The notes under the pieces are model-generated. The model saw only the letters and a program-made list of their open reading frames with translations. It was not told the DNA's origin and searched no databases. Source: Escherichia coli (lineage in GTDB: Bacteria > Pseudomonadota > Gammaproteobacteria > Enterobacterales > Enterobacteriaceae). From it: a stretch of 64,000 nucleotides of DNA. Location of the stretch: NCBI RefSeq assembly GCF_003334315.1, contig NZ_QOWR01000020.1; one strand, given 5' to 3'. Position 1 is the stretch's first letter. The number at the start of each line of letters is the position of its first letter. Made by a program: the position numbers and the translations under genes. This document shows positions 1 to 13,439 of this stretch, piece after piece.

Positions 1-149
1 GGTTGAGAAGCGGTGTAAGTGAACTGCAGTTGCCATGTTTTACGGCAGTGAGAGCAGAGATAGCGCTGATGTCCGGCGGTGCTTTTGCCGTTACGCACCA
101 CCCCGTCAGTAGCTGAACAGGAGGGACAGCTGATAGAAACAGAAGCCAC
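1..149 (-). CDS. insA: IS1 InsA, N-terminal part only (GTG start at 149, truncated by window edge)
   Basis: Minus-strand translation from GTG at 149 gives [50 protein letters not shown], the InsA N-terminus. Confidence 0.85.
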
Positions 150-204
150 TGGAGCACCTCAAAAACACCATCATACACTAAATCAGTAAGTTGGCATCAT
201 CACC
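1..204 (-). mobile_element. IS1: IS1 insertion sequence, terminal ~204 bp including terminal inverted repeat; element continues beyond window start
   Basis: Reverse complement of 1..204 reads GGTGATGATGCCAACTTACTGAT... then the insA 5' region, matching the IS1 left end as recalled (one mismatch in the IR versus the canonical GGTGATGCTGCC). Confidence 0.9.
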
Positions 205-422
205 TAGTTTGTGATAACGACTGCTGGATTGATGATGAAGGGACGTACACCATTCACACCATTCATGCGTCTTATCAGTTCGCTAATGTGATGGATATGG
301 AGAACTTTAATATTTACCTCGGGACGTATTACTCCATTCTGGATAGCGACGGTGATAAAAAACACGGTGATGATACTGATGACCGTTACGGCGCACGCGT
401 TCGCTTTAAATACTTCTTCTGA
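205..422 (+). pseudogene. 3' remnant (72 codons) of an outer-membrane beta-barrel (porin-like, possibly KdgM/OmpL-family) gene, 5' part replaced by IS1
   Basis: Open frame from the IS1 boundary to TGA at 420-422 encodes ...TYTIHTIHASYQF...NFNIYLGTYYSIL...RYGARVRFKYFF with alternating beta-strand pattern and terminal aromatic FKYFF typical of OMP C-termini; no start codon or upstream gene body. Confidence 0.4.
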
Positions 423-462
423 TGAAGTCGCGGTGCTGGATATTTTCCGGCACCGCAACTCA

Positions 463-777
463 TTAAGGCAGGTAAAACACTTCTTGCAGCTCGCTACTCA
501 CCGGGCTGTTATCCGGGTTAGCTGGCATAACGTCGGTCATATATTTCCACCAACGTTGGCAGATTTCAGTGCTGGCTACCGCATTCCAGCGTTCTTCAGA
601 TTCAATCTCTACCATGGCAAACAGCAGATTACGCGCTTTGTCGAGGTAAATGGCGTAGTTATGCGCACCGTGAGATTTCAACACTGCTTCCAGTTCCGGC
701 CAGATGGGGTTATGCCGACGCTGATACTCTTCGTGGGCGTCGGGGTTAACCTGCATGATAAAGGCTTTGCGGATCAT
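463..777 (-). CDS. rhaM: L-rhamnose mutarotase
   Basis: 104 aa [37 protein letters not shown]... matches RhaM (YiiL). Confidence 0.95.
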
Positions 778-786
778 GTTTGCTCC

Positions 787-1611
787 TTACAGCGCCAGCG
801 CACTGGCTAGTGGTGTAACGCCGAAGCGCTTGCCGAGCGCTATCAACTCTTCACGGCTGATGGTCTGTTTCATGCCGCCCATCGAATAAACCTTCACTAA
901 TACTTGTGCTGATTTTTCTGCGGTGTCGATTAAACCGAAGGTTTCATCCAGCGTCGGTCCGCTGCCGAAGACGCCGTGGAAGGGCCACAACACCAGCGAA
1001 TGTTTTTGCATCTCTTGTGCGGTCGCCTGGCCGATTTCGTCCGTGCCGGGCACCATCCACGGCAAAATGCCAACGCCATCCGGGAATACCACCAGACACT
1101 CGGTGCTGCCTTCCCACAGTTGGCGAGTGAAGACCGCGGTGTCGTTTTCAAGTACATAGGTGAGGGCGATCAGGTTGGTGGCGTGGCAGTGCATGATCAC
1201 CCGATCTTTGCCGTTGGTGGCTTTAATGCGCTCGCAGTGGGAAAGGAAGTGAGCCGGAAGTTCGGAAGTGGGGACGGCTTCGTTGGTTAACCCCCAAAGA
1301 ATGTGGTAGCCCGCGCCGTCGCTGTCGACTTTTACGATGCCTAAGTTAGCCGCAGGATCAAGCTGGACGTTACGGAAGAATTTGCCCGAGCCGGTGACAA
1401 TAAACGGTGTATTTGCCAGTAAAGGCATGGGCTGGCTGAGCGGGATATAGCGCGGTTGTTGGTGGAAATTGTCGTGATATGGTGCGATATCGGCGTCATC
1501 CAGGCGTAGCGTCAGGTTGCCGCCGTTGCGCTCATCCCAGCCTTTCAGCCAGGCGTCGGTGGTGGCTTTGATCATTCCCTGGACAAACCAGGACTGAGTA
1601 ATGTTTTGCAT
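787..1611 (-). CDS. rhaD: rhamnulose-1-phosphate aldolase
   Basis: 274 aa from [25 protein letters not shown]...; ORF track N-terminal extension runs into a REP element and was trimmed. Confidence 0.95.
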
Positions 1612-1638
1612 GTTCTGTGTTCCTGTAAATTCGGTGTT

Positions 1639-1690
1639 GTCGGATGCACGACCCGTAGGCCGGATAAGGCGCTCGCGCCGCATCCGGCAG
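1639..1690. repeat. REP element in rhaA-rhaD intergenic region
   Basis: GTAGGCCGGATAAGGCGCTCGCGCCGCATCCGGCA palindromic unit. Confidence 0.8.
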
Positions 1691-1693
1691 TGT

Positions 1694-4706
<3,013 letters not shown>

Positions 4707-5543
4707 ATGACCGTATTACATAGTGTGGATTTTTTTCCGTCTGGTAACGCGTCCGTGGCGATAGAACCCCGGCTCCCGCAGGCGGATTTTCCTGAACATC
4801 ATCATGATTTTCATGAAATTGTGATTGTCGAACATGGCACGGGTATTCATGTGTTTAATGGGCAGCCCTATACCATCACCGGTGGCACGGTCTGTTTCGT
4901 ACGCGATCATGATCGGCATCTGTATGAACATACCGATAATCTGTGTCTGACCAATGTGCTGTATCGCTCGCCGGATCGATTTCAGTTTCTCGCCGGGCTG
5001 AATCAGTTGCTGCCACAAGAGCTGGATGGGCAGTATCCGTCTCACTGGCGCGTTAACCACAGCGTATTGCAGCAGGTGCGACAGCTGGTTGCACAGATGG
5101 AACAGCAGGAAGGGGAAAATGATTTACCCTCGACCGCCAGTCGCGAGATCTTGTTTATGCAATTACTGCTCTTGCTGCGTAAAAGCAGTTTGCAGGAGAA
5201 CCTGGAAAACAGCGCATCACGTCTCAACTTGCTTCTGGCCTGGCTGGAGGACCATTTTGCCGATGAGGTGAATTGGGATGCCGTGGCGGAGCAATTTTCT
5301 CTTTCGCTGCGTACGCTACATCGGCAGCTTAAGCAGCAAACGGGACTGACGCCTCAGCGTTACCTGAACCGCCTGCGACTGATGAAAGCCCGACATCTAC
5401 TACGCCACAGCGAGGCCAGCGTTACTGATATCGCCTATCGCTGTGGATTCAGCGACAGTAACCACTTTTCGACGCTTTTTCGCCGAGAGTTTAACTGGTC
5501 ACCGCGTGATATTCGTCAGGGACGGGATGGTTTTCTGCAATAA
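4707..5543 (+). CDS. rhaS: AraC-family activator of rhaBAD and rhaT
   Basis: 278 aa [46 protein letters not shown]... Confidence 0.95.
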
Positions 5544-5616
5544 CGCGAATCTTCTCAACGTATTTGTACGCCATATTGCGAATAATCAACTTCGTTCTCT
5601 GGCCGAGGTAGCCACG

Positions 5617-6465
5617 GTGGCGCATCAGTTAAAACTTCTCAAAGATGATTTTTTTGCCAGCGACCAGCAGGCAGTCGCTGTGGCTGACCGTTATCCGCAA
5701 GATGTTTTTGCCGAACATACACATGATTTTTGTGAGCTGGTGATTGTCTGGCGCGGTAATGGTCTGCATGTACTCAACGATCGCCCTTATCGCATTACCC
5801 GTGGCGATCTCTTTTACATTCATGCTGACGATAAACACTCCTACGCTTCCGTTAACGATCTGGTTTTGCAGAATATTATTTATTGCCCGGAGCGGCTGAA
5901 GCTGAATCTTGACTGGCAGGGAGCGATTCCGGGATTTAGCGCCAGCGCAGGGCAACCACACTGGCGCTTAGGTAGCGTGGGGATGGCGCAGGCGCGGCAG
6001 GTTATCGGTCAGCTTGAGCATGAAAGTAGTCAGCATGTGTCGTTTGCTAACGAAATGGCTGAGTTGCTGTTCGGGCAGTTGGTGATGTTGCTGAATCGCC
6101 ATCGTTACACCAGTGATTCGTTGCCGCCAACATCCAGCGAAACGTTGCTGGATAAGCTGATTACCCGGCTGGCGGCTAGCCTGAAAAGTCCCTTTGCGCT
6201 GGATAAATTTTGTGATGAGGCATCGTGCAGTGAGCGCGTTTTGCGTCAGCAATTTCGCCAGCAGACTGGAATGACCATCAATCAATATCTGCGGCAGGTC
6301 AGAGTGTGTCATGCGCAATATCTTCTCCAGCATAGCCGCCTGTTAATCAGTGATATTTCGACCGAATGTGGCTTTGAAGATAGTAACTATTTTTCGGTGG
6401 TGTTTACCCGGGAAACCGGGATGACGCCCAGCCAGTGGCGTCATCTCAATTCGCAGAAAGATTAA
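5617..6465 (+). CDS. rhaR: AraC-family activator of rhaSR
   Basis: 282 aa from GTG start (V)[37 protein letters not shown]...; longer ORF-track form overlaps rhaS and was trimmed. Confidence 0.9.
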
Positions 6466-7496
6466 TTCGCCATGCCGATGCCGACGATGTTAGCGGCGAC
6501 AATAATCACCACACAACCGAGGCTCAACACCGTTACCGGACGGCGTCCTGCATTGTTCCACTCTTTCAGCACCAGCCCGACGATACCGCCGCACAATACA
6601 TAGAAACTCATATGCAGCATCCAACTGATGTAGTCATACTGCGCCGGAATGCGGGCGTGGCCCCAGGCATAGAAAAAGAATTGCAGATACCACATCAACC
6701 CGCCCAGTGCCGAGAGTAACACATTGTGAATGATCAGCGGTTTTGCCAGCGAGAAGTCGGCTTTTAGCGACAAATCCTTCACTTTTGCCAGACGAATAAA
6801 ACAGAAACCGAGGTTAATGATCGCGCCGCCGCCCATGATGACAACATAGCTTGGCAGAGCGACATACAGTGGATCGACGCCAAGTGCGGCAGCGGCTTCA
6901 TGCATCGGTTTTGCGGCGTTCATCGCAAAGGACATCCCGGCAGAGAAAATGCCGCACATCACCGCCAGCACCAGCCCTTTTTTCAGATTGAACTCTTCGG
7001 CTTTAATGCCCATCTTGCGCTCTTTCAACTGCCCGGCTCGAGTTACAATCCCTACGCCAATCAGCGCCACCAGAACGCCGAGCAACGTCATGCGTCCGCC
7101 TTCGGTGTTAATCAACACATCGAAATTGCCGTTGATAATTGGCGTCATCAGCGTACCGACAATCAACGTAATGCCAATGGCGATGCCAATTCCCATCGAC
7201 ATGCCGAGATAACGCATGGTCAGGCCGTAGTTGATATTACCGATCCCCCACATAGCGCCGAACAGAAAAACAGGCAGCAGCGTAGAGAGACTAAACGAGC
7301 TGTAATACGCCCAGAAATTCGGTAGTAACAGGGCGCTGATGGCCCACGGCAGAATAATCCACGAAACAATCCCACCGACTGACCACATGGTTTCCCATGA
7401 CCATTTTTTTACTTTTTTGAACGGAGCGTAAAAACAGGCTGCACTGGCCGCGCCGATCAAATGCCAAAATATCCCCATCGTAATCGCGTTACTCAT
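6462..7496 (-). CDS. rhaT: L-rhamnose:H+ symporter
   Basis: 344 aa [26 protein letters not shown]..., hydrophobic membrane protein. Confidence 0.95.
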
Positions 7497-7684
7497 CTTC
7501 TTATCCTCATCATTTTTCGTCGCGTCACATCTCCGACGAGATGAGTGTAAAAATCGTGCTGTCGATTAACCTTTCGCCTGTTGCCGCCGTTGTCGATTTA
7601 CTGGCAATCACGGCATTAAGTGGGTGATTTGCTTCACATCTCGGGCATTTTCCTGCAAAACCATACCCTTACGAAAAGTACGGC

Positions 7685-7725
7685 ATTGATAATCATTTTC
7701 AATATCATTTAATTAACTATAATGA
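7685..7725 (+). promoter_or_regulatory. sodA promoter with Fur-box-like operator
   Basis: TGATAATCATTTTCAATATCATT resembles the Fur consensus GATAATGATAATCATTATC; TATAAT -10 hexamer at 7718-7723. Confidence 0.6.
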
Positions 7726-7780
7726 ACCAACTGCTTACGCGGCATTAACAATCGGCCGCCCGACAATACTGGAGATGAAT

Positions 7781-8401
7781 ATGAGCTATACCCTGCCATC
7801 CCTGCCGTATGCTTACGATGCCCTGGAACCGCACTTCGATAAGCAGACCATGGAAATCCACCACACCAAACACCATCAGACCTACGTCAACAACGCCAAC
7901 GCGGCGTTGGAAAGCCTGCCAGAATTTGCCAACCTGCCGGTTGAAGAGCTGATCACCAAACTGGACCAGCTGCCAGCAGACAAGAAAACCGTACTGCGCA
8001 ACAACGCTGGCGGTCACGCTAACCACAGCCTGTTCTGGAAAGGTCTGAAAAAAGGCACCACCCTGCAGGGTGACCTGAAAGCGGCTATCGAACGTGACTT
8101 CGGCTCCGTTGATAACTTCAAAGCAGAATTTGAGAAAGCGGCAGCTTCCCGCTTTGGTTCCGGCTGGGCATGGCTGGTGCTGAAAGGCGATAAACTGGCG
8201 GTGGTTTCTACTGCTAACCAGGACTCTCCGCTGATGGGTGAAGCTATTTCTGGCGCTTCCGGCTTCCCGATTCTGGGCCTGGATGTGTGGGAACATGCTT
8301 ACTACCTGAAATTCCAGAACCGCCGTCCGGACTACATCAAAGAGTTCTGGAACGTGGTGAACTGGGACGAAGCAGCGGCACGTTTCGCGGCGAAAAAATA
8401 A
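7781..8401 (+). CDS. sodA: Mn superoxide dismutase
   Basis: 206 aa [43 protein letters not shown]... Confidence 0.97.
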
Positions 8402-8457
8402 TTATTTGCCGCCTGCTGCAATGAGGCGTATAGGCCGCATATCAGCTTAAAAAATGA

Positions 8458-8485
8458 ACCATCGCCAACGGCGGTGGTTTTTTTG
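8458..8485 (+). terminator. rho-independent terminator after sodA
   Basis: Hairpin CCATCGCC...GGCGGTGG followed by TTTTTTT. Confidence 0.7.
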
Positions 8486-8660
8486 TGATCAATTTCAAAA
8501 TAAAAACAATGATCCGATAAAAATAAAACAGTGTTTCAATTGATGTGGTTTTGATCACTTTTATTGATTAAATGAATGTCTATCTTCGTTTCCATCAACA
8601 CTGATGCTCCATTGAGGAATTACGCATCAGCCCTTAAAAATATGCCGACAGGTGATGGAA

Positions 8661-9644
8661 ATGCAGATAAAACGCTCGATTGAGAAAATCCCGGGGGGGA
8701 TGATGCTCGTCCCGCTATTCCTTGGCGCACTGTGCCACACCTTCTCGCCGGGGGCGGGGAAATATTTTGGATCATTCACCAACGGGATGATTACCGGTAC
8801 GGTGCCCATTCTGGCGGTGTGGTTTTTTTGCATGGGGGCGTCAATAAAATTAAGCGCGACGGGAACGGTACTGCGTAAATCCGGTACGCTGGTGGTAACT
8901 AAAATTGCCGTCGCGTGGGTGGTTGCGGCAATTGCCTCGCGTATTATTCCGGAACATGGTGTTGAAGTTGGATTCTTTGCCGGACTTTCAACGCTGGCAC
9001 TGGTGGCGGCGATGGATATGACCAATGGTGGACTTTACGCTTCCATCATGCAGCAGTACGGCACAAAAGAAGAAGCTGGGGCATTTGTGTTGATGTCGTT
9101 GGAGTCCGGGCCGCTCATGACGATGATTATTCTGGGCACTGCAGGGATTGCCTCGTTTGAACCGCATGTTTTCGTCGGCGCAGTATTACCGTTCCTGGTG
9201 GGCTTTGCCCTGGGGAACCTTGACCCTGAATTACGAGAATTTTTCAGCAAAGCGCTGCAGACGCTGATTCCATTCTTTGCCTTCGCGCTGGGCAATACCA
9301 TTGATTTGACTGTGATTGCCCAGACTGGTTTGCTGGGAATCCTGTTGGGTGTGGCAGTAATTATCGTGACCGGTATTCCGTTGATTATCGCCGATAAATT
9401 GATTGGCGGTGGCGATGGCACTGCCGGAATTGCCGCTTCCAGTTCCGCAGGGGCCGCGGTAGCGACACCTGTGCTGATTGCAGAAATGGTGCCTGCGTTT
9501 AAACCGATGGCTCCGGCAGCAACTTCGCTGGTAGCGACGGCGGTCATTGTGACTTCGATTCTGGTGCCAATTCTTACCTCTATCTGGTCACGTAAAGTCA
9601 AAGCCAGAGCAGCGAAAATCGAAATTTTAGGTATGGTGAAATAA
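8661..9644 (+). CDS. kdgT: 2-keto-3-deoxygluconate permease
   Basis: 327 aa from [28 protein letters not shown]... Confidence 0.93.
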
Positions 9645-9666
9645 ACCTGCTTCCTTAATCCCCACA

Positions 9667-9699
9667 GCCGGATGAACTAACGTTCGTCCGGTTTGCTAT
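9667..9699 (+). terminator. probable terminator after kdgT
   Basis: Hairpin CCGGATGAAC...GTTCGTCCGG followed by TTTGCTATT. Confidence 0.5.
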
Positions 9700-9792
9700 T
9701 GAGTTCCTGCCTGGATACTTACCGCGAAAACAGCACGCCTGACATAAAATAAATATGGTCTAATGGGGAAATTTCTCGTGGAGAGGGAACAG

Positions 9793-10467
9793 ATGCGATA
9801 TCCGGTTGATGTATACACAGGCAAGATTCAGGCTTATCCCGAAGGCAAACCCAGCGCAATTGCTAAAATCCAGGTTGATGGTGAGTTGATGCTGACGGAG
9901 CTGGGGCTGGAAGGTGACGAGCAGGCGGAGAAAAAGGTTCACGGCGGGCCAGACAGAGCGCTGTGTCATTATCCTCGTGAGCATTATCTCTACTGGGCGC
10001 GGGAATTTCCGGAACAGGCGGAGTTGTTTGTTGCGCCTGCGTTTGGTGAAAACCTCTCAACCGACGGCCTCACGGAAAGTAATGTTTATATGGGCGATAT
10101 TTTCCGCTGGGGAGAGGCATTAATTCAGGTCAGCCAGCCGCGCTCGCCTTGCTATAAACTCAATTACCATTTTGATATCAGCGATATAGCGCAGTTGATG
10201 CAAAACACAGGTAAGGTGGGGTGGTTGTATAGCGTGATAGCGCCAGGGAAAGTGTCTGCGGACGCGCCGCTGGAGTTGGTTTCCCGTGTCAGCGATGTGA
10301 CCGTGCAGGAGGCTGCCGCCATCGCATGGCATATGCCGTTTGATGACGATCAGTATCACCGTTTACTCTCCGCTGCCGGGTTATCGAAAAGCTGGACGCG
10401 AACGATGCAAAAGCGCCGACTGAGCGGCAAGATCGAAGATTTTTCCCGCCGGTTGTGGGGAAAATAA
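9793..10467 (+). CDS. yiiM: MOSC-domain protein (6-N-hydroxylaminopurine resistance)
   Basis: 224 aa from MRYPVDVYTGKIQAYPEGKPSAIAKIQVDGELMLTELGLEGDEQAEKKVHGG... Confidence 0.9.
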   Translation: MRYPVDVYTGKIQAYPEGKPSAIAKIQVDGELMLTELGLEGDEQAEKKVHGGPDRALCHYPREHYLYWAREFPEQAELFVAPAFGENLSTDGLTESNVYMGDIFRWGEALIQVSQPRSPCYKLNYHFDISDIAQLMQNTGKVGWLYSVIAPGKVSADAPLELVSRVSDVTVQEAAAIAWHMPFDDDQYHRLLSAAGLSKSWTRTMQKRRLSGKIEDFSRRLWGK

Positions 10468-10475
10468 CCCCCGGA

Positions 10476-10562
10476 GTGTAGGCCTGATAAGACGCTATCA
10501 GCGTCGCATCAGGCATCCTGCTCAAATGCCGGATGCGGCGTAAACGCCTTATCCTGCCTACA
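10476..10562. repeat. REP pair (BIME) between yiiM and cpxA
   Basis: GTAGGCCTGATAAGACGC...GCGTCGCATCAGGC and GCCGGATGCGGCGTAAACGCCTTATCC units. Confidence 0.8.
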
Positions 10563-10572
10563 AATGCGGAGT

Positions 10573-11946
10573 TTAACTCCGCTTATACAGCGGCAACCAA
10601 ATCACCAGCCGTAAACCGCCCAGCGGGCTGTCTTCTGCCTTCACCCAGCCACGATGCTGCTGAATGGCGGTTTCAACAATCGCCAGCCCCAATCCTGTAC
10701 CGCCAGATTCACGATCGCGTGCTTCATCGGTCCGATAGAACGGACGGAAAATCTGTTCGCGATCTTCCGGGCTAACGCCAGGACCATCGTCGTCCACCGT
10801 AATGGTGATACCGTCTTTATCTACCGCAAAGCCCACTTCAATCTTCGTATGGGAATAACGCAGAGCATTACGAACAATGTTTTCCAGCGCACTTTCCAGG
10901 GCGTTCGGATTGCCGTACAGCGGCCACGGCCCAGGCGGGAAGTTAACTGTCAACGACTTGCCCATTTGCTCGGCTTCGAACGCCGCGTTATCCAGCACTT
11001 CACTCCACAACTGATTGGCTTTGATGGTCTCGCTAACCAGCGCGTTTTTTTGCTGATTACGTGACATCACCAACAGGTCGTTGATCATGCTGTCCAGACG
11101 TTGCGCTTCGGTTTCAATACGCTCCAGTTCCTTGCTTTCACCGCTACGACGGCGCAGTAACGCCGTACCCAGTTGCAGACGCGTCAGCGGGGTGCGCAGC
11201 TCGTGAGAGATATCAGAAAGCAGACGCTGCTGGGAGGTCATCATGCGCTCCAGCGCGGTGACCATCTGGTTAAAACTGGCACCTGCGGCAAGGAATTCCT
11301 GTGGCCCCGCTTCCAGTTCCGGGTGCTGGCGTAAGTTTCCCTGGGCAACTTCATCGGCAGCGTTTTTCAGCTTACGCGCCGGTTTTGCCAGACTCCAGGC
11401 CAACCACAACAGCAGCGGCGTACTGACCAACATGGTGACAATCAGCAGTAATAGCGGGCGGTCAAACAGTAAGTTAATGAAATCGGATTGAGAACTGCTG
11501 GCCGGACGAATCAGATAAAGTTGGTAATTATCTTCGCCATCACGCACGGAGAACGGACCGACCAGTTCCACGCGGCCATACTTTTTCTTCTGCGGATGAT
11601 CGGCGTTATCGGCCTGACCAATAAAGTTACGAATGATCTGCATTTCGCTGCGTTCAGCGCCGATCACGCGGCCTTCGGTGGTCACCAATAATAAACGCTG
11701 TCCTGGCGGTGCCCACTTATCAATCGCCCGAAACAGACGCCGCCACCACATTAAATCGTTGGGCGGATCGTTCGCCAGCTCCGCTTCGACATGCTGCTCA
11801 ATCATCAGCCCCTGACGCTGTTCGCTATCCAGAAGCTCGGTCATCTGGCGTGAATCGAGCTTGGGTAACATCAAAACCAACATCAACACCAGCGCCAGCG
11901 TCAGCCAGAAGATGGCGAAGATGCGCGCGGTTAAGCTGCCTATCAT
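10573..11946 (-). CDS. cpxA: envelope stress sensor histidine kinase
   Basis: 457 aa MIGSLTARIFAIFWLTLALVLMLVLMLPKLDSRQ... Confidence 0.97.
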   Translation of the reverse strand: MIGSLTARIFAIFWLTLALVLMLVLMLPKLDSRQMTELLDSEQRQGLMIEQHVEAELANDPPNDLMWWRRLFRAIDKWAPPGQRLLLVTTEGRVIGAERSEMQIIRNFIGQADNADHPQKKKYGRVELVGPFSVRDGEDNYQLYLIRPASSSQSDFINLLFDRPLLLLIVTMLVSTPLLLWLAWSLAKPARKLKNAADEVAQGNLRQHPELEAGPQEFLAAGASFNQMVTALERMMTSQQRLLSDISHELRTPLTRLQLGTALLRRRSGESKELERIETEAQRLDSMINDLLVMSRNQQKNALVSETIKANQLWSEVLDNAAFEAEQMGKSLTVNFPPGPWPLYGNPNALESALENIVRNALRYSHTKIEVGFAVDKDGITITVDDDGPGVSPEDREQIFRPFYRTDEARDRESGGTGLGLAIVETAIQQHRGWVKAEDSPLGGLRLVIWLPLYKRS

Positions 11947-12641
11947 GAAGCAGAAACCATCAGATAGCCGCGACCACGCAAGGTTTTAAACCACGGGTGA
12001 CCATCTTTACGATCCGGCAGTTTACGACGCAGGTTGGAAATGTGCATATCGATAGCGCGGTCGAAAGGCGTCAGGCGTTTGCCCAGCACTTCCTGGCTTA
12101 AATGTTCACGGGAAACCACCTGACCCAGATGCTGTGCCAGCAAATAGAGCAGGGTAAACTCAGTGCCGGTTAACTCCAGCGTTTGCCCGTCGAAGCTGGC
12201 TTCCTGACGGCCTGGATTCAGCACTAAGGCATCAACTTCCAGTGTCGGTGAACCGTTGTCGTTGTTTTGCTGTTGCTCGCTCCAGTGCGAACGGCGCAGG
12301 ATCGCGCGAATACGTGCCACCAGCTCACGATCATTAAATGGTTTCGGGAGATAGTCATCTGCGCCCAGCTCAAGGCCGAGAACGCGATCAAGTTCACTGC
12401 CGCGCGCCGTCAACATAATGACAGGCGTCTGGTGTGTCTGGCGAAGTGCTTTTAATGTGTCGATACCATTTTTCTTCGGCATCATTACGTCAAGCAAAAG
12501 TAAATCAATGCTGTCGTCCAGAAGATCAAGCGCCTGTTCCCCATCGTGGGCAACAATCACGTTGAAGCCTTCCATCTCGAGCAGCTCCTTTAATAGGGAA
12601 GTCAGCTCTCGGTCATCATCAACTAACAGGATTTTATTCAT
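11943..12641 (-). CDS. cpxR: envelope stress response regulator
   Basis: 232 aa MNKILLVDDDRELTSLLKELLEMEGFNVIVAHDGEQAL...; 4-bp overlap with cpxA. Confidence 0.97.
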   Translation of the reverse strand: MNKILLVDDDRELTSLLKELLEMEGFNVIVAHDGEQALDLLDDSIDLLLLDVMMPKKNGIDTLKALRQTHQTPVIMLTARGSELDRVLGLELGADDYLPKPFNDRELVARIRAILRRSHWSEQQQNNDNGSPTLEVDALVLNPGRQEASFDGQTLELTGTEFTLLYLLAQHLGQVVSREHLSQEVLGKRLTPFDRAIDMHISNLRRKLPDRKDGHPWFKTLRGRGYLMVSAS

Positions 12642-12696
12642 TGTTTAAATACCTCCGAGGCAGAAATTACGTCATCAGACGTCGCTAATCCATGAC

Positions 12697-12711
12697 TTTA
12701 CGTTGTTTTAC
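12697..12711. promoter_or_regulatory. CpxR box in cpxR-cpxP divergent promoter region
   Basis: Reverse complement reads GTAAAACAACGTAAA, matching the GTAAA-N5-GTAAA consensus. Confidence 0.6.
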
Positions 12712-12790
12712 ACCCCCTGACGCATGTTTGCAGCCTGAATCGTAAACTCTCTATCGTTGAATCGCGACAGAAAGATTTTGGGAGCAAATG

Positions 12791-13291
12791 ATGCGCATAG
12801 TTACCGCTGCCGTCATGGCCTCAACGCTGGCAGTCAGTTCATTAAGCCACGCTGCTGAAGTCGGTTCAGGCGATAACTGGCATCCGGGTGAAGAACTTAC
12901 GCAGCGCAGTACGCAGAGCCATATGTTCGACGGCATAAGTTTAACCGAACATCAGCGTCAGCAGATGCGAGATCTTATGCAACAGGCCCGGCACGAACAG
13001 CCTCCTGTTAATGTTAGCGAACTGGAGACAATGCATCGCCTTGTCACCGCAGAAAATTTTGATGAAAACGCTGTGCGCGCACAGGCAGAAAAAATGGCGA
13101 ATGAGCAAATTGCTCGTCAGGTTGAGATGGCAAAAGTCCGCAACCAAATGTATCGCCTGTTAACGCCGGAGCAGCAAGCGGTTTTAAACGAGAAACATCA
13201 ACAACGAATGGAGCAGTTGCGCGACGTGACGCAATGGCAAAAAAGTTCATCGTTGAAGCTATTGAGTAGTAGCAACTCACGTTCCCAGTAG
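12791..13291 (+). CDS. cpxP: periplasmic Cpx pathway inhibitor/adaptor
   Basis: 166 aa from [40 protein letters not shown]... Confidence 0.95.
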
Positions 13292-13298
13292 TAAACCC

Positions 13299-13358
13299 TG
13301 TTTTCCTTGCCATAGACACCATCCCTGTCTTCCCCCACATGATGTGGGGGTTTTTTTT
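13299..13358 (+). ncRNA. cpxQ: CpxQ, 3'UTR-derived small RNA of cpxP (approximate 5' boundary)
   Basis: Known sRNA processed from the cpxP 3'UTR; here the 3'UTR ends in a strong terminator CCCCCACATGATGTGGGGG TTTTTTTT. Confidence 0.5.
13332..13358 (+). terminator. rho-independent terminator of cpxP/CpxQ
   Basis: CCCCCACATGATGTGGGGG stem followed by eight T. Confidence 0.85.
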
Positions 13359-13439
13359 ATCCTCAATTTGCCTGCTGCTTAATGCATTGCAGATGATTTG
13401 CTTCCGTTATACTAGCGTCAGTTGATAGCGGGAGTATTT

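Follow-up and report, generated by a model that had tools for sequence, protein, structure and literature searches.

Downstream of an IS1 element and facing the rhamnose mutarotase gene rhaM, a short open reading frame raises two questions: which gene does it come from, and does it still give rise to a product? The frame lies near the left end of a 64,000-nt stretch of Escherichia coli DNA, the whole of which is referred to here as the window. The original prediction had read it as the C-terminal fragment of an outer-membrane β-barrel gene truncated by IS1, possibly related to OmpL and the KdgM family (PF06178). We are highly confident that window positions 205-422 are an inactive remnant, left when IS1 cut a chromosomal RafY-family porin gene near its 3' end, and that many E. 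coli carry this gene between frvA and rhaM. Thus, fragment and truncation are borne out, the former by a Pfam match to Porin_8 and the latter by the IS1 left end that abuts the remnant, while the proposed relatives are not.

The native, non-IS1 DNA starts at window position 205. From 207 to 419 the frame comprises 71 sense codons, followed by the TGA at 420-422 and, directly after it, a second in-frame TGA at 423-425. The encoded peptide ends in ...VCDNDCWIDDEGTYTIHTIHASYQFANVMDMENFNIYLGTYYSILDSDGDKKHGDDTDDRYGARVRFKYFF (...RYGARVRFKYFF), and the three peptide strings quoted in the original prediction are all present in the translation. Two further points of that prediction stand in part. The frame described as 72 codons from the IS1 boundary to the TGA does end as stated, after 71 sense codons, but it is not bounded by the IS1 junction, as it stays open leftwards to 117, within IS1, with a stop at 114-116. 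The second point was the lack of both a start codon and a 5' body. No 5' part of the porin gene was found in the window, where a BLAST search with the whole porin locus matched only 205-485, but GTG 288, the first possible in-frame start, and ATG 291 would open a 44-aa ORF. The features of the locus are collected in Table 1.

Table 1. Features at the IS1 junction and the adjoining rhaM locus, in window coordinates.
Feature	Position	Strand	Basis
IS1 left end (IRL facing the remnant)	1..204	-	InsA translation, NCBIfam domain, identity to annotated IS1 copies
3' remnant of the chromosomal RafY-family porin gene (rafY2, 'carbohydrate porin')	205..422	+	100% identity to the CP53 gene and Pfam Porin_8
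GC-rich hairpin, intact	430..456	.	RNA fold -29.2 kcal/mol, z -6.5
rhaM (L-rhamnose mutarotase, 104 aa), intact, convergent with the remnant	463..777	-	ORF; rhaM annotated at the matching place in CP53, ES6 and K-12

Throughout the 281 nt of window positions 205-485, the sequence shows 100% identity with the 3' end of an annotated gene that is intact in E. coli CP53. In this strain the gene comprises 1395 nt, encodes 464 aa, and lies between frvA and rhaM, convergent with rhaM. The remnant is likewise 100% identical to the intact gene at the same place in E. coli ES6. PGAP names the chromosomal gene 'carbohydrate porin'. The remnant corresponds to the final 218 nt, stop included, and matches gene nt 1178-1395. 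The break at nt 1178 falls in codon 393, phase 1, and therefore the window copy keeps residues 394-464. They comprise a loop in which a CxxxC motif is conserved, the three β-strands predicted to be the last of the barrel and, at the C-terminus, the ...RFKYFF signal. In Pfam, the 71-aa fragment matches Porin_8 (PF16966) at model positions 303-372 of 372 with an E-value of 3.7e-26, and no other Pfam family was found in it, even at E<=10. The intact CP53 protein covers the complete model (1-372/372, E 7.7e-154), which is described as 'Porin-like glycoporin RafY'. An NCBIfam scan of the intact protein and the fragment returned no family. On sequence grounds, the 71-aa frame is not a chance ORF, given that 281 nt agree fully with an annotated gene and that the Pfam match is strong. 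The window copy is a fragment of a RafY/Porin_8 member, not a functional member.

The suggestion of KdgM and OmpL as relatives was based on the last residues of the peptide. K-12 OmpL does end in ...IRIGTKYFF, as the original prediction stated, so that both proteins, each an outer-membrane β-barrel, share their last four residues. There is nevertheless next to no chance that the fragment derives from an oligogalacturonate-type porin of the KdgM/OmpL family (PF06178). The Pfam scan of the fragment gave only Porin_8, with no KdgM match at E<=10, and in a BLASTP comparison with K-12 OmpL the fragment reached only E=14, with nothing alike beyond the ending. Furthermore, the product of the intact gene has 464 aa, an N-terminal coiled coil and about 16 predicted strands, as against a 230-aa, 12-strand barrel. 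Terminal aromatic motifs are common to most outer-membrane barrels, and the KYFF shared by OmpL and the fragment is the generic aromatic C-terminal signal of such proteins. In the remnant, this β-signal is present as ...GARVRFKYFF, with V, F, Y and F at positions -7, -5, -3 and -1. Among 39 homologues, R453, Y454, G455, R457, R459, F460, K461, Y462 and F464 are invariant. The cysteine pair of the CxxxC motif (VCDNDCW; C395/C399; window 211-225) is nearly invariant in the same 39 homologues, which come from several genera. The loop carrying C395 and C399 may be closed by a disulfide.

The structure of the intact protein was modelled with AlphaFold2 from a 39-sequence alignment. The model has a mean pLDDT of 63.6 and a pTM of 0.62, with most barrel segments scoring about 70-89 pLDDT. 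In the model, the intact allele begins with a signal peptide region (MKKSILSLAIGLLLTCSTGMA...), followed by an N-terminal helix at 28-70 (coiled coil) and about 16 strands. The strands at 405-418, 427-440 and 453-463, after the C395/C399 loop, are the last three. As the confidence of the model is only moderate, the number of strands in the remnant is approximate. A Foldseek search of the model against the PDB was led by 16-stranded general porins (BpsOmp38, VhChiP, OmpU, OmpF and OmpC) with TM-scores of 0.45-0.66, and neither LamB/ScrY nor KdgM-type barrels were among the top matches. This predicted fold agrees with the 16 strands that TCDB gives for the RafY family (PMC4827864), and is supportive of the assignment.

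The name 'carbohydrate porin' in RefSeq could also point to an 18-stranded specific sugar porin of the LamB/ScrY type (PF02264). The N-terminal helix of the intact protein has a weak match to Sugarporin_N (E 0.06), and in a TCDB-based phylogeny the RafY family is closest to the sugar porin family (PMC4827864). It is nevertheless very unlikely that the gene belongs there. No LamB-family Pfam match was obtained for the intact protein at E<=10, and a PDB sequence search returned nothing at E<=0.01, the solved ScrY and LamB included. The best structural matches of the moderate-confidence model are the 16-stranded general porins named above, rather than 18-stranded barrels. Moreover, RafY is a general diffusion pore according to Andersen et al. 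1998, as that work is cited in PMC4827864.

With the gene identified, the effect of IS1 on it can be considered. IS1 transposed into the gene at codon 393 (of 464 codons), and its IRL faces the remnant. This cut the last 71 codons off from the promoter, the ribosome-binding site, the start codon, the signal peptide, the N-terminal coiled-coil helix, and the first approximately 13 of 16 strands. Without these elements the remnant cannot make a porin and is a pseudogene. With three strands and the C-terminal aromatic signal, its product could neither be exported nor form a barrel, so that the strain would lack this porin. From this anatomy we infer that the remnant is not expressed.

A small protein could in principle still be made from the remnant, either from the 44-aa ORF or by read-through from IS1, for instance a peptide that binds BAM through its β-signal. 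No stop interrupts the frame between 117 and 419, and the same 44-aa ORF was called by a gene caller on a metagenome contig. Such a call is mechanical, however, and there is no in-frame start codon between 117 and 288, nor any obvious Shine-Dalgarno-like sequence before 288 in the window. The only promoter-like site nearby, that of insA at 197-170, faces away from the remnant and into IS1. As it has no signal peptide, such a product could not reach the periplasm, where BAM acts. Expression as a small protein with some activity is extremely unlikely.

The element to the left of the remnant is identified by its sequence and by the N-terminus of InsA. Its terminal inverted repeat lies at 182-204, and the 5' coding part of insA, located on the minus strand, extends from 149 past the left edge of the window. 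The N-terminus of InsA matches the IS1/IS1595 zinc-binding domain of NCBIfam (NF050000) with an E-value of 5.5e-11, and all 204 positions (204/204) are identical to annotated IS1 copies in the strains HS30-1 and cM2a. As the window begins within IS1, only the junction on the side of the remnant is visible. This exact junction was found in none of 5426 complete E. coli genomes. The search included only 22 nt of IS1, which avoided confounding by the many IS1 copies, and all best matches started at query base 23, and thus none of these genomes has the window junction. The exact 43-nt junction pattern also had no match in JGI metagenome contigs. The junction is a private allele, and could serve as a lineage marker.

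Other IS1-disrupted alleles of the same porin gene are found in HS30-1, cM2a, MIN14, B18271, CM148361 and one ENA metagenome contig. At least five other independent insertions, in both IS1 orientations, are represented in these strains, at gene nt 224, 766, 1210, 1254 and 1319, as compared with 1178 in the window. The insertion at nt 1254 was found by looking up the 44-aa ORF and belongs to the ENA contig, in which IS1 has the opposite orientation. RefSeq labels the cut copies of HS30-1, cM2a, B18271 and MIN14 'carbohydrate porin, incomplete'.

These alleles bear on what may lie beyond IS1 in the window strain. Probably, IS1 simply inserted into the gene, the 5' part of which should then lie beyond the element, together with a 9-bp duplication, TAGTTTGTG. 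Past the other end of IS1, the porin sequence would then be found up to nt 1186 as ...GGTGTAGTTTGTG (...AATTCAGCGGTGTAGTTTGTG), with TAGTTTGTG duplicated. An IS1-mediated adjacent deletion, or recombination between two IS1 copies, could instead have removed the 5' part of the gene, perhaps together with frv and further genes. There is a precedent in HS30-1, where IS1 at gene nt 1319 stands between fdhD and the final 75 nt of the porin gene, with yiiG and frvRXBA lost, and the window itself holds no 5' part of the gene. By contrast, in three of the four annotated comparators, namely cM2a (nt 224), MIN14 (nt 766) and B18271 (nt 1210), IS1 simply inserted, producing a 9-bp target duplication and leaving both halves of the gene in place, and a deletion in the window strain is rather doubtful.

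The repeated hits, at a minimum of six independent sites, could mean that the loss of this orphan large-pore porin is selected for. If so, a phage, a colicin or an antibiotic might enter the cell through it. Such selection is unlikely. A rough estimate from about 2560 genomes with the gene, about 10 IS1 copies in each, and a 1.4-kb target in about 4.9 Mb gives approximately 7 expected random hits, against 6 genomes observed. The genomes hit are rich in IS1, with 27-31 places each, and IS1 prefers AT-rich targets. The alternative is neutral decay of the gene, and nothing appears to call for selection.

To the right of the remnant, the locus is intact. The hairpin listed in Table 1 sits in the 40-nt gap between the convergent stops of the porin gene and rhaM, and none of 200 shuffled sequences folded as well. 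It has no T-run and is therefore not called by a terminator scan, i.e., it is no canonical intrinsic terminator. In K-12, the alignment shows a hairpin at the corresponding position behind rhaM that resembles this one but differs from it. The hairpin, rhaM and the neighbouring rha operon are unaffected by IS1. A 152-aa ORF on the plus strand (window 352-810) runs antisense across rhaM and is almost certainly spurious.

Beyond this region, window positions 205-20000 are 100% identical to ES6 and cM2a, and positions 205-64000 are collinear with and about 100% identical to CP53, ES6 and cM2a, which are commensal and livestock E. coli. Since the remainder of the window is thus collinear with ordinary E. 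coli, IS1 is its only structural peculiarity. A Shigella origin, which the presence of IS1 might suggest, is rejected on the same grounds. The spacer between rhaD and rhaA (window 1612-1693) varies in length between strains, with about 82 nt in the window, ES6 and cM2a, 174 in CP53, 358 in HS30-1 and 450 in K-12. This variation is probably due to a variable number of repetitive extragenic elements.

The original prediction could not place the fragment in the K-12 gene list, took it as possibly strain-specific accessory DNA, and proposed to look for an intact homologue at this locus in other strains. K-12 indeed has a 300-bp frvA-rhaM spacer without a porin remnant, the frvA-proximal 148 nt of which align at 74% with CP53. 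Many other strains have an intact copy between frvA and rhaM, and 'strain-specific' proved too narrow, as about half of the complete E. coli genomes carry the gene. In a megablast search with window positions 205-470, 2856 of the 5426 complete genomes matched the 3' end of this gene or of a rafY paralogue. At almost all of these matches, the annotation gives a 'carbohydrate porin' CDS adjoining rhaM. In CP53, the GC content of the porin gene is 44.9% and that of the 476-bp spacer upstream of it 35.9%, as compared with 50-56% for the flanking frv and rha genes.

A porin gene convergent with rhaM is also present in Citrobacter rodentium, in another Citrobacter, and in Klebsiella sp. B345. Since the porin gene is carried by about half of E. 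coli, and at the same place by Citrobacter and a Klebsiella, sequence comparison indicates that K-12 most likely lost the gene. The adjacency to rhaM across Escherichia, Citrobacter and a Klebsiella also means that the position is old. In Citrobacter the porin gene is solitary, as in E. coli. In Klebsiella sp. B345, it is preceded by genes for a LacI-type regulator, a GH36 α-galactosidase and a LacY-type permease, forming a chromosomal raf-like cluster. With such a cluster located at rhaM, the gene that stands alone in E. coli appears to be all that is left of a chromosomal raffinose-type cluster, and in the window strain it has decayed further. In Citrobacter and Klebsiella, the rhaM operon also contains, upstream of rhaM, an Fe-ADH gene that E. 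coli does not have.

The remnant is an ordinary IS-disrupted pseudogene of an already known gene, and copies of this kind are annotated by RefSeq in other strains. The correct label is that of a RafY-family (Porin_8) porin pseudogene, IS1-disrupted and missing its N-terminus, and neither a KdgM/OmpL fragment nor a novel ORF. Beyond correct annotation its importance is small. It does illustrate that a gene list centred on K-12 misses a gene that about half of E. coli possess.

RafY (TC 1.B.15) is the glycoporin of the raffinose plasmid pRSD2 (Ulmke et al. 1997). The plasmid RafY compared here is the porin encoded on pMS6192A-NDM, at the end of the plasmid raf locus. Its neighbours are annotated as LacI-family regulator, α-galactosidase, MFS transporter and GH32 hydrolase; these are read as rafR, rafA, rafB and rafD, and the porin there is RafY. 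The plasmid and the intact chromosomal protein share 353 of 444 residues (80%) across residues 21-464, the same length of 464 aa, and the same Pfam family over the full model. Their C-termini are nearly alike, with ...DDRYGAR(V/L)RFKYFF. The two genes differ in their setting. The plasmid gene follows rafR-rafA-rafB-rafD, whereas the E. coli chromosomal gene stands alone between frvA and rhaM, unlinked to the α-galactosidase, permease and invertase genes of a raf operon. In the literature consulted that cites the founding work, pore activity towards di- and trisaccharides is on record for the plasmid RafY only.

In E. coli O157:H7 the chromosomal gene is called rafY2 and is described as a homologue of rafY that occurs there in the absence of rafRABD (PMC4809568). 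It is the same gene, with 98.6-98.7% nucleotide identity to the CP53 gene, and carries the label 'glycoprotein' in the Sakai record. In O157:H7 rafY2 is intact, whereas the window copy is truncated by IS1. GlyP of Klebsiella pneumoniae has been assigned to the RafY family as well (bioRxiv 10.64898/2026.03.29.715108). It belongs to another species and another locus than the E. coli porin, and is set beside it by its published description. Up-regulation of GlyP is reported to confer a fitness advantage in carbohydrate competition (bioRxiv 10.64898/2026.03.29.715108), and GlyP may serve as an example of what an intact member of the RafY family can do.
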